A stretch of DNA of 64,000 nucleotides from a phage, in sequence record OZ336094.1, one strand, 5' to 3'. Each line of letters starts with the position of its first letter. Positions within the stretch are counted from its first letter, which is position 1. Both the position numbers and the translations under genes were made by a program. Shown in pieces: positions 39,518 to 58,053 of this stretch. Under the pieces are notes generated by a model. The model saw only the letters and a program-made list of their open reading frames with translations, was not told the origin of the DNA and did not search any database.

Positions 39518-39874
39518 TTACATCCACAGATTATGAAAATACTTAGCAAACAAAATGCGACCTTCTAAACGATCTTGCCGCTGTTTTTCATTAACTTCTT
39601 CTGGTGGAGTTGAGTCCTTAAAAGAAGACTCTATTTTTTCAAGAATTTCTAACCAGTGTTCTGCTGCTCGTTCTTCCATATAAGGTAGATAGTCACCTTT
39701 AGCGTGTGGGTACATCCGACGAAGTAACCCACTAGGAATTTTAACATTGTTTGTGGCTATCACTTTTGCACGATATGCAGAAAGTGCATTGTAGATCAGT
39801 TTACTTAGTGTCACATCTAAGTCAAGAAGATCACTCTCTTCAAATTGAATTTCATCGTGTACAATTTTCATCAT
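39518..39874 (-). CDS. Hypothetical protein, 118 aa
   Basis: Track ORF. Confidence 0.4.
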   Translation of the reverse strand: MMKIVHDEIQFEESDLLDLDVTLSKLIYNALSAYRAKVIATNNVKIPSGLLRRMYPHAKGDYLPYMEERAAEHWLEILEKIESSFKDSTPPEEVNEKQRQDRLEGRILFAKYFHNLWM

Positions 39875-45180: not shown

Positions 45181-45382
45181 AAATTATTTAAAGTTTTTAC
45201 AGATTTTTGGGTACAAATTTTGAAAATGAAAAGTTCAAGTTTGGTCAAAATTATTTAAAGTTTTTGTACGTATTTCTGTCCAGATTTTGAAAATGAAAAC
45301 TTCAATTTTTTAAAAATTCCCCAGTTTATTTAAAGTTTTTTTGCCTTTTTCCGTAGAAAAATCAAAAATGAAAAGTTCAATT
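45181..45382. repeat. Three imperfect direct repeats of about 66-76 bp, each with TATTTAAAGTTTTT and TTGAAAATGAAAAGTTCAA blocks
   Basis: Seen directly; conserved blocks with 34-37 nt spacing; ORF-free AT-rich DNA. Confidence 0.7.
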
Positions 45383-45401
45383 TCGTGTTTTTATAGGTGT
45401 G

Positions 45402-45515
45402 TTAATGAGAATCATTTTCGTTTGTAAATGAGAATCATTATCATTTAACTATGTAAGTGATAATCATTCTCAGTAAGAGAATGAGAATCATTAGCAAATG
45501 AGAATTTTCTCATTT
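45402..45515. promoter_or_regulatory. Array of five or more palindromic AATGA-GAA-TCATT boxes (Fur-box-like)
   Basis: AATGAGAATCATT x3, GTGATAATCATTCTC, and perfect palindrome ATGAGAATTTTCTCAT; one base from the Fur core AATGATAATCATT. Confidence 0.5.
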
Positions 45516-46773: not shown

Positions 46774-46833
46774 TTGACACTGAAAAATAATTTGGTAATA
46801 TATACTCCATAAGGCGGGAAATGGTTTCCCGCC
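46774..46833 (+). promoter_or_regulatory. Promoter + 5' stem-loop cassette (TTGACA-N16-TAATAT; hairpin GGCGGGAAA-TGG-TTTCCCGCC)
   Basis: 9-bp perfect stem immediately after -10; ATG at 46859. Confidence 0.6.
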
Positions 46834-47227: not shown

Positions 47228-47280
47228 TTGACATTGCACTAAAACCTGATAAGCTATCTTAAAGCGGGAATAGTTCCCGC
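47228..47280 (+). promoter_or_regulatory. Promoter + 5' stem-loop cassette (TTGACA; hairpin GCGGGAA-TAG-TTCCCGC)
   Basis: Cassette family member; ATG at 47300. Confidence 0.55.
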
Positions 47281-56316: not shown

Positions 56317-56346
56317 CCAGGGCGCACAAAGCGCCCTTTCTTTTTA
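56317..56346 (+). terminator. Intrinsic terminator (AGGGCGC-ACAAA-GCGCCCT + T-run)
   Basis: Same stem as 50955 and 55167 terminators. Confidence 0.6.
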
Positions 56347-56548
56347 CCTAAATAAAGATGATAGCTTTTACCTATCAAGAACGTTCACCGAAAAAAGTGA
56401 ATAGATCGCGGTATCGAGCTAATCAAGGAGCAGATGAACAACCATACCATGAAGATCATAAGGCGCTTACAGCGTGTTTTAGACCGCTTATTTTTAATTT
56501 CTTCATGCAACTATCTGGCAAAAACAGCCTTTTTCTCATCTTTCCTCT

Positions 56549-56626
56549 TAAATGATAATCATTCTTATTTATAGCTGATTATTTATGCAATAAACTGCAT
56601 AATGCAATAATGATAATCATTCTTAA
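56549..56626. promoter_or_regulatory. Two exact AATGATAATCATT palindromes (Fur-box core) in an ORF-free AT-rich region
   Basis: ttaaATGATAATCATTcttat and caataATGATAATCATTcttaa. Confidence 0.5.
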
Positions 56627-56986
56627 CTTAAGACCATCTAACTTATAAAATAATAAGTTATCTAACTAAATTAAAGCTAATTATCTTACTTTTATTTATA
56701 ACATACTGTTACTATCTTATTGATAACTTTATATTAAACAACAATAATCAATGTAAATCATTACTAAGCTAACTATAATCTATCTAACCCTTAAAACTAT
56801 AACTATAATCTATCGAATTGTTGCACAAAGTAACTATTAAATTGTTAGTAACATTGCTAAATAATTAATATCCTATCTATTTATGATCTAATCTTTACCT
56901 TCCTATTTATCACCTAACTAATCATTCCATATAGTAATCATTTCATACAATAACTATAACAAGAAATATAATTCGCAAGCGTATCA

Positions 56987-57182
56987 TTAGCAGCCTATGC
57001 CGGACACATAGGCGGCTAATAATAACGCAACTACACACCCCACATAATAACCATCACCGATAGTCATTATTTGTGCTTATGTAGCTTGCAACAACTGCAA
57101 GCGCAACAATATACAATTGTATATTGTATCCCTTACATTGTTGCGGTGCGTTATTATTAGCTAATGTTTAGAACATTGGCTA
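56987..57182. repeat. Cluster of three long palindromes in a roughly 1.4-kb non-coding region
   Basis: TTAGCAGCCTATG-N7-CATAGGCGGCTAA; perfect 20-bp palindrome CAATATACAATTGTATATTG; TAGCTAATGTT-TAG-AACATTGGCTA. Confidence 0.7.
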
Positions 57183-57465
57183 TAATATAAGCTAAATAAT
57201 AAGCTATACAATAATAAACATCGTGAATAATGATGCTGATGATCATAATGCGCCACCTTCCAGGGGGGCGCTATGTGAACACAAAGAAATCTTTCTTGTC
57301 AAGAAAAATATTAACACTATTGCGCAAAATTATTTATATATGAATAGATGGTTTTTCATACTATTGCCCCCATATAGCCTATCATTTGTTGAGCCTACTT
57401 TCTTAAAAGCGCAATAAATCAGAATTATCTTGATTTTTAGGGCGTTTTATAGTACAGAAAATATG

Positions 57466-57487
57466 CAAATGATAATCATTATCAGCT
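57466..57487. promoter_or_regulatory. Near-consensus Fur box (gcAAATGATAATCATTATCagc)
   Basis: 17 of 19 positions match GATAATGATAATCATTATC. Confidence 0.5.
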
Positions 57488-57639
57488 ATCTTCCACGGGT
57501 GGCACTATTTCACGCCAGATCATTTCATTTGGCAAGGTGTATATAGATGTTTAGACTTGCCAAGCCATTGATTTACTTAGAATTTATCTGTTTTGTTGTG
57601 AGTAGTACCTTTCTTGCTCAGAAAATAATCAAAAGTCTT

Positions 57640-57672
57640 ATAAGTCATTGAATGATAATGCAAATGATAATT
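57640..57672. promoter_or_regulatory. Tandem GATAAT-type hexamer array (gAATGATAATgcAAATGATAATTATTCTCATTg)
   Basis: Overlapping Fur-like hexamers. Confidence 0.45.
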
Positions 57673-58053
57673 ATTCTCATTGATATTTGAGGGGGACGGT
57701 CGGCAGAAATCGGGGGGCGCTGAAAATCGCGTTAAGCACCTCTCGCAAGCGAGCAGTATTTTGCGGCAAGTTATTGATATTATTGACTTTACGCTTATGA
57801 AAAGGGGGGTGTGTCGAAATAAATCGGGTATACCGGAAAATTTTTGTGGTATAGATATTTATTTGTCTATATTATGTACAAAGGGGTGTGTTAAAAATAA
57901 TAGGTATATATAGAATAATTGATAGGGAAATCCTATACTAATCCCTATACTAATTCCTCCATTAATGATGTTCCTATGTTACTGTTCTTGTAATAGATGA
58001 AAAGACGCTGTATGATGTGTGGCATGAAACGTAAACTTATAAAGGAGTCTGAT

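Follow-up and report, generated by a model that had tools for sequence, protein, structure and literature searches.

The terminal non-coding gap and the genome ends

The window, by which we mean the whole stretch of 64,000 nucleotides that was analysed (record OZ336094.1), derives from a Justusliebigvirus, a phi92-like E. coli phage of the Stephanstirmvirinae, with 99.7% identity to Escherichia phage Paula in the 2 kb that were compared. It contains a non-coding gap of 1.66 kb that is flanked by a homologue of Phi92_gp248, which is the final gene of the phi92 record, and by a homologue of the phAPEC8_0019 protein, to the right of which homologues of Phi92_gp002 onwards follow; by homology with phi92, the physical genome ends lie inside this gap. 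An earlier sequence-only reading of the window had seen no convincing ORF here, and this held: the small ORFs of the gap gave no PHROG match while both flanking genes did, the Paula annotation has no CDS in the gap, and a scan for tRNA and tmRNA genes found none. A highly conserved block at the left of the gap (56350-56499, 4-8% variable columns) overlaps a small ORF (56358-56555, 65 aa; also 56434-56574, 46 aa) that is annotated in some records and is without PHROG match; this block may be regulatory or may hold a small gene. The records PQ226818, PP925826, OR525700 and PV659873 carry strings of automatically annotated 'hypothetical proteins' of 30-47 aa that run over either strand of the terminal non-coding region, and also over the structured element described below, and these are probably spurious. 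Four records named 'Campylobacter phage' (MG065639, MG065645, MG065656 and MG065689; host C. jejuni) have 95.9% identity to this region of the source phage and genomes that are likewise ~146.4 kb in length; their labelling as Campylobacter phages looks doubtful.

The RefSeq annotation of phi92 (343-bp left and right repeats), which is the only basis for the phi92 repeat, was aligned to the window and places a direct terminal repeat (DTR) of 343 bp at 57392-57734, with the left end at 57392 and the right end at 57734. The record (contig) of phage PD06 terminates precisely at 57391. For the congener BME3 a DTR of 342 bp has been determined by PhageTerm (PMC12210895), and DTRs have been reported as the termini of Stephanstirmvirinae genomes (PMC12695924). 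It is through homology only that the source phage has the short DTR that goes with a T7-type end-processing hairpin.

The cut points are 57391|57392 and 57734|57735, where the bar marks the cut. The left cut-site motif is TGTTG|AGCCT (57387-57396, + strand; wider context ...TTTGTTG|AGCCTAC), of which TGTTG|AGC is kept in all lineages, and the right one is CGTTA|AGCAC (57730-57739, + strand; wider context ...CGCGTTA|AGCAC). The record of Phapecoctavirus 3A1 ends with ...ATATGTTG and starts with AGCACG, and the right site is supported by the end of the WPEC1 record (...TTCGCGTT) and by the presence of CGCGTTAAGCAC in 3A1. The two DTR boundaries have the motif GTT(G/A)|AGC(A/C)C in common. The record ends of SalP219 were dropped as evidence on termini because they overlap by 127 bp, a common k-mer size of assemblers, and the overlap most likely arose during assembly. 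In most lineages outside Justusliebigvirus the TGTTG|AGC is preceded by a covarying hairpin of 5-6 bp (CCGCC-aca-GGCGG, ATCGC-gta-GCGAT, AACCCT-gata-AGGGTT and others) and by TTTGGGGGCRAA, and in some lineages the TGTTG|AGC module occurs in 2-3 tandem copies ~67 nt apart. The combination of G-tract, small hairpin and TGTTG|AGC looks like the real terminase cut module.

The palindromes are helices of one module

The sequence-only reading had singled out three palindromes between 56987 and 57182, all of which are present where it placed them. They are also more than chance would give: in a scan for hairpins (stem of at least 10 bp, at most 1 mismatch, loop of at most 10 nt) the 1.66-kb gap contained 5, against 1.3 in dinucleotide shuffles, and only 0.7% of the 300 shuffles reached 5. 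Stems of at least 11 bp were found 13 times in the window, 3 of them within 200 bp, compared to ~6 per 64 kb in the shuffles, and the 221-nt segment folded with z-scores versus shuffles of -5.1 (RNA, + strand), -8.3 (RNA, - strand) and -7.3 (DNA). The palindromes are not independent of one another; they turned out to be helices of one conserved fold, a module of ~190 nt (56987-57182) that is present in a single copy in the window and to which we refer as the element. A 15-nt long-range inverted repeat, a hairpin (H3) and the outer stem of another (H4), all missed by the sequence-only reading, join the palindromes in a single structure.

The element starts with hairpin H1 (56987-57019), in which TTAGCAGCCTATG (56987) and CATAGGCGGCTAA (57007) form a 13-bp stem with one A.G mismatch around the 7-nt loop CCGGACA; its outer 5 bp (TTAGC/GCTAA) compete with the long-range closing stem. 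The left arm of the latter, GCTAATAATAACGCA (57015-57029), is fully complementary to its right arm, TGCGTTATTATTAGC (57147-57161), giving a perfect pairing of 15 bp that encloses three hairpins in a 117-nt interior: i) H2 (57031-57084), with an outer CTACA/TGTAG and an inner ATAATAACCATC-ACC-GATAGTCATTAT, in which double changes were found for 6 of the 9 inner pairs; ii) H3 (57084-57102), GCTTGCA-ACAAC-TGCAAGC, with an invariant stem and a variable loop; and iii) H4 (57102-57145), with an outer stem CGCAACAAT/ATTGTTGCG (57102-57110 with 57137-57145), a tip formed by the 20-mer palindrome CAATATACAATTGTATATTG (57107-57126), which is its own reverse complement, and, following the 20-mer, a largely conserved unpaired stretch CCCTTACA (57130-57137). 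The element closes with a trailing hairpin (57158-57182), referred to as hairpin 3, made up of TAGCTAATGTT (57158), the 3-nt loop TAG and AACATTGGCTA (57172), with an 11-bp stem that includes one T.G. Neighbouring helices overlap by 4-5 nt (GCTAA is common to H1 and the long stem, TAGC to the long stem and hairpin 3), and therefore not all helices can be present at full length simultaneously.

The element lies to the left of the DTR, at about 210-230 bp from the left end of the repeat, which in the virion puts it just inside the right terminal repeat. The idea that the palindromes could be packaging or terminase recognition sites thus stood in so far as their position connects them to the genome end, but fell short in that the cut sites are at least 210 bp away and the palindromes are therefore not cut sites themselves. 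The motif TGTTG|AGC follows the long stem of the element at 168-294 nt in every Stephanstirmvirinae lineage examined, which places an inverted repeat some hundreds of bp inward of the right terminal repeat.

Conservation and covariation in the Stephanstirmvirinae

Across Justusliebigvirus the element is 96-100% identical, and its first half is recovered at 70-81% identity in Phapecoctavirus, in the Klebsiella phages KP2025 and FKP3 and in Citrobacter phage Tr1; further lineages were added by pattern scans of viral and metagenome contigs. Within the genus, positions 56950-57149 have 6-8% variable columns and rank among the best-conserved blocks of the gap, versus 54-70% in the flanks (in the AT-rich stretch to the left, 46% at 56800-56849 and 70% at 56900-56949), and the substitutions that do occur in the element are concentrated in the loops.

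The pairing statistics were derived from an alignment of 22 distinct sequences and a model of 42 pairs. Paired cells amounted to 97.8%, compared to 21-44% when partners were slid by 1-3 columns, compensatory double changes occurred at 12 pairs, compared to 1-4 with slid partners, and the observed covariation score was reached by none of 500 shuffles; compensatory changes that exceed both the slid-partner and the shuffle controls are what is generally expected of a structured single-stranded nucleic-acid element. The closing stem was Watson-Crick paired in 330 of 330 cells over the 22 sequences, with 3 covarying positions (e.g. CG<->GC<->AT), the inner 7 bp of H1 in 154 of 154 cells, again with 3 covarying positions (GC<->CG, CG<->GC, TA<->CG), and H3 in 154 of 154 cells, with a stem that did not vary at all. 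Together these three helices gave 638 Watson-Crick cells out of 638 with no wobble on either strand, which fits a constraint on both DNA strands. The unpaired motifs CAACTACAC and C-CTTACA were invariant or near-invariant. The substitution pattern across these lineages shows that the base pairing of the predicted fold is under selection.

Within the genus, identical 8-bp arms surround a 20-mer centre that reads AATT, GAGA, GA or ATG (the phi92 version is CAATATAC-GAGA-GTATATTG); the perfect palindrome is therefore an accident of a particular lineage in a hairpin that is itself conserved. KP2025 keeps the architecture of H4 with a different sequence (CGTAATGAT/ATCATTACG, tip GATGTAT-GTG-ATACATC), Phapecoctavirus has no H4 tip, and hairpin 3 is restricted to Justusliebigvirus, where it is conserved (with a loop change of TAG to TGG) and for which no counterpart was found in the other genera examined.

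These patterns bear directly on the suggestion, made from the window, that the palindromes are a cluster of operators, i.e. that they are read as duplex by dimeric proteins that bind double-stranded DNA. Their dyad symmetry is real, the H3 stem and the long arms are nearly invariant in sequence, and other likely protein sites, such as Fur-like boxes, are abundant nearby. Nevertheless, we consider this interpretation quite improbable: in H1, H2 and the long stem, transversions (GC<->CG) affect both half-sites in concert, the 20-mer has half-sites whose spacing differs by 0-2 bp around centres that are unrelated in sequence, and the 15-bp arms lie 100-117 bp apart at a separation that differs among genera. 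Conserved half-sites at a fixed spacing, as a dimeric repressor would have in its operator, were not found; variation that is centred on loops, together with arms that covary, argues against duplex operator sites and fits a hairpin. The comparison thus gave no support to the operator proposal.

Covariation can be mimicked by template switching, through which a substitution in one arm may be transferred to its partner. The inverted repeats might then be functionless, with their symmetry being kept by (quasipalindrome) correction in a recombination-prone terminal region, and the terminal regions of these phages are indeed rich in repeats and indels. Such a process would not be expected to make the element one of the most conserved blocks of the gap within the genus, to keep it across the Stephanstirmvirinae with an analogue at the equivalent place in the Vequintavirinae, or to conserve the unpaired motifs as well, and we regard this explanation as the most improbable of those discussed here.

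An analogous element in the Vequintavirinae

Phages 4MG and KNP2 and one metagenomic relative have a gp248 homologue, and in these the same gap contains a closed multi-hairpin element. No similarity to the Stephanstirmvirinae element was detected by BLAST or by a covariance model of the latter. The 4MG/KNP2-type element has a perfect long-range inverted repeat of 19-21 nt, the arms of which are separated by 164-173 nt, with an 11-nt repeat nested in it and with hairpins inside, and it folds with a z-score of -10.75. It is spread over the Vequintavirinae, including Seunavirus and Mydovirus members and GAP31, and a consensus of 5 sequences predicted 62 pairs, 10 of which had double changes, with both types of mismatch present. 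The closing stems in both subfamilies have a core AATAAC/GTTATT in common, as seen by eye.

For KPP-1 (Mydovirus) a DTR of 514 bp was located at 116,316-116,829 by coverage and PhageTerm, and the packaging class given by PhageTerm was T7-type (PMC9862379). The KPP-1 element was found at 117,138-117,343, 309 bp from this DTR, with side and orientation matching those in the source phage. The elements of the Stephanstirmvirinae and the Vequintavirinae are architecturally analogous, being alike in architecture and in position, and the genomes compared show that the predicted element holds its position relative to the mapped ends in two subfamilies.

Folded DNA, RNA or replication origin

The same fold could be formed by a transcript, either as a structured non-coding RNA or as a cis-acting RNA domain of a longer transcript, with the minus strand (leftward transcription from the DTR side) being the likelier one; its role could lie in regulation, in processing (e.g. 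as an RNase III target) or even in packaging (cf. the pRNA of phi29). The strength of the covariation equals that of bona fide RNAs. All 20 non-Watson-Crick cells of the model sit in H2, where an A.C on the plus strand is a G.U on the minus strand, and on the minus strand the 42-pair model therefore consists entirely of standard pairs (20 G.U, 0 A.C). The minus strand is likewise preferred in the RNAalifold consensus (-60.4 kcal/mol versus -47.5 for the plus strand) and in the z-score of the single-sequence fold (-8.3 versus -5.1), and a leftward promoter-like site, GTGCCA-16-GATAAT, is found at 57505..57478, where it overlaps the strongest Fur-like box.

Several observations point the other way. 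A search with Rfam 15 gave no match at gathering thresholds in the whole window, and in the gap only matches at chance level (E > 0.5). There is no terminator-like site beside the element on either strand, and the sole one between 55.5 and 58.5 kb (56319-56337) comes after the upstream gene; the counts from the promoter and terminator scan were at chance level. The flanks of the element, in which a dedicated promoter would be expected, are hypervariable in the genus. A T.G on the plus strand, equivalent to A.C on the minus strand, is seen both in the H4 of Phapecoctavirus and in the hairpin 3 of Justusliebigvirus, so that the strand signal of the wobble pairs is mixed, with H2 pointing to the minus strand and H4 and hairpin 3 to the plus strand; the analogue in the Vequintavirinae has both mismatch types, and 638 stem cells without wobble would be unusual under the relaxed G.U rules of RNA. 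We see an RNA as a serious rival, though one that is rather unlikely.

A third option is that the element is (part of) a replication origin or a priming signal, in which the AT-rich stretch to its left (56560-56960) would serve as the unwinding region and the fold as an initiation signal on single-stranded DNA (for the entry of primase or the primosome) or as a platform for an initiator. The 400 bp that adjoin the element have the lowest G+C content of the window (0.31) and contain short direct repeats, the near-invariant unpaired motifs (CAACTACAC, C-CTTACA) would suit sequence-specific recognition, and T7 has secondary origins at its genome ends beside packaging signals (cf. the phiOR annotation). 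The TAACTATAATCTATC units that had been reported from the window are present at 56770 and 56800, but there are two copies only of this direct repeat (15-18 nt), the second of which lies in a segment that is poorly conserved in the genus; AACTATAA occurs 4 times. Parts of the AT-rich stretch are hypervariable in the genus and the least conserved of the gap, and the turning point of the cumulative GC skew is at ~40 kb, together with the switch in gene orientation, away from the element. An origin at the element is compatible with the adjacent AT-rich DNA, and we regard it as rather unlikely. The hexamer ATTAGC was considered as an iteron and rejected; it is not enriched in the window, and it recurs around the element in other lineages.

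Fur-like boxes and other repeats in the region

The 13-mers AATGATAATCATT/AATGAGAATCATT, which we take to be the core of the E. coli Fur box, occur at 56551-56563, 56609-56621, 57468-57480 and 57663-57675, two of these boxes lying inside the terminal repeat, and in a second array at 45401-45515. Compared to the 19-mer GATAATGATAATCATTATC, the segment 57465-57483 agrees at 17 of the 19 positions. Matches to this box with at most 3 mismatches were found 6 times, compared to an expected 0.01, and the 13-mer 29 times, compared to 5.8. Fur-like boxes are also present in the terminal gap of the Vequintavirinae (4MG, KPP-1); we came across no earlier account of Fur boxes for virulent members of this group.

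Repeat units of ~37 nt, consisting of a Fur-like box followed by a G-tract, are present three times (57230-57266, 57463-57499 and 57658-57694). The sequence GGGGGGCGCT occurs exactly at 57263 and 57712, the latter copy 13 nt before the right cut site, and composite motifs of the form 'TTTYGGGG...AATCATT' flank the structured element in other lineages too. Just beyond the right end of the DTR, ahead of the first left-end gene, there are the direct repeats TTATGAAAAGGGGGGTGTGTCGAAATAAATCGG/TTATGTACAAAGGGGTGTGTTAAAAATAATAGG (57795-57827/57872-57904) and two copies of CCTATACTAATC (57932-57955), which are candidate early promoter or regulatory sites; the segment 57869-57930 is conserved into Phapecoctavirus.

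Further to the left, a direct repeat of ~60 nt (ttatttaaagttttt...gaaaatgaaaa(c/g)ttcaatttt) occupies a non-coding stretch at 45250-45400, directly upstream of the Fur-like array at 45.4 kb. A near-identical hairpin, GGCGGGAAATGGTTTCCCGCC, recurs on the + strand along the rightward gene block at 46813, 49515, 50395, 53072, 54717 and 55575 (with variants at 47262 and 52705); the pattern gave 10 matches where 0 were expected and may represent a repeated terminator or an RNA-processing hairpin of the early region.

A putative role at the concatemer junction

A conserved multi-hairpin element beside the terminal repeat is most likely a folded signal in the processing, packaging or copying of the genome ends, and neither a cut site nor a set of repressor sites. 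Given that its pairing is selected, that it is stationed by the genome ends and that T7 offers a precedent, we favour a cis-acting fold, single-stranded or cruciform, that would take part in the processing of concatemer junctions or in packaging, and to this reading we assign a probability of about 0.4. We infer that the working form is DNA and that the process that is served is end processing or packaging. The element would act in cis at the concatemer junction, just inside the right terminal repeat, either as hairpins on DNA that is transiently single-stranded or as a cruciform. It might supply, in a T7-like manner, the hairpin that enables the terminal repeat to be duplicated, or it might mark the junction at which the terminase docks and starts or stops packaging.

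Several points weigh against this junction fold: the putative cut-site module (G-tract, small hairpin and TGTTG|AGC) could by itself suffice for recognition by the terminase, the mismatches in H2 and the consensus energy point to one strand, possibly RNA, the interior of 117 nt is too large for the simple extrusion of a cruciform, and the T7 repeat is a single imperfect hairpin and not a multi-branch fold. A broader proposal takes the elements of both subfamilies together as an undescribed class of end-associated structured nucleic acid in the rV5/phi92 super-group, which would take the form of minus-strand RNA or of a folded DNA strand, would serve the duplication of the terminal repeat or packaging as a cofactor or checkpoint, and might be coupled to the iron status of the host via the Fur-type boxes; we put this forward as a speculation that is rather unlikely to hold as a whole.

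No description of the element was found in the searchable literature, the coverage of which did not extend to the phi92 genome paper. The PhageMaP knockout data for 'Bas63' were set aside because Bas63 is a Felixounavirus and the data are therefore irrelevant here. To our knowledge, the recognition of the concatemer junction and the duplication of the repeat in phages with short DTRs are unresolved even for T7, and almost nothing is known on this outside the T7 group. A covarying cis element at a fixed distance from conserved cut motifs offers a direct experimental handle, in the form of its 15-bp stem, in two large subfamilies of myoviruses that are candidates for therapy (the phi92/phAPEC8 group and the rV5/PVP-SE1 group). 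It also marks the point at which these genomes should be opened for deposition, in a region over which gene callers have probably put spurious 'hypothetical proteins' in several GenBank records.

Comparison with known systems

The pRNA of phi29 is encoded beside the genome end of that phage and is linked to packaging. Like the element, it is a structured molecule (~170 nt) encoded by the end of a linear phage genome, but it is an abundant transcript of a protein-primed phage that has no small terminase, whereas for the element no Rfam family of any kind reached threshold. The single-strand initiation signals (the complementary-strand origins of G4 and M13, plasmid ssi and Frpo) resemble the element in being single-stranded multi-hairpin folds of 100-300 nt with conserved unpaired motifs and imperfect stems; they differ in that they act on obligatorily single-stranded genomes or transferred strands, and no sequence similarity to the element was seen.

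The injection-stop-signal region of T5, which is non-coding, combines palindromes with direct and inverted repeats in a cluster close to a terminal repeat; it lies within the 10-kb terminal repeat and controls the two-step entry of the DNA. Both regions are large non-coding stretches by a genome end, packed with inverted and direct repeats. In the source phage, however, there are no genes between the element and the right end, and a pause in DNA entry would therefore be without evident purpose there.

In T7, concatemers have one terminal repeat per junction and the repeat must therefore be duplicated before packaging; this need has been discussed, and one of the duplication models has drawn support from a hairpin structure that was observed in the course of infection (PMC4281155). 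A relevant study is that of Chung, Nardone and Hinkle (1990, J Mol Biol 216:939; ref. 53 in PMC11482910). The two systems differ: T7 is a podovirus with its own RNA polymerase, whereas the source phage is an unrelated myovirus of 146 kb, and T7 has one imperfect 19-nt hairpin, whereas the element has six helices including a 15-bp closing stem. The T7 inverted repeat is said, in the 1990 work of Chung, Nardone and Hinkle, to give a hairpin-ended intermediate. In the T7 sequence there is an imperfect inverted repeat of 19 nt centred near nt 39588, which lies 190 bp to the left of the terminal repeat if the latter, as we assume, starts at 39778. Both phages have short direct terminal repeats and an inverted repeat placed just inside the right one, at 190 bp to the left of the terminal repeat in T7 and at 210-405 bp to the left of the DTR for the element.
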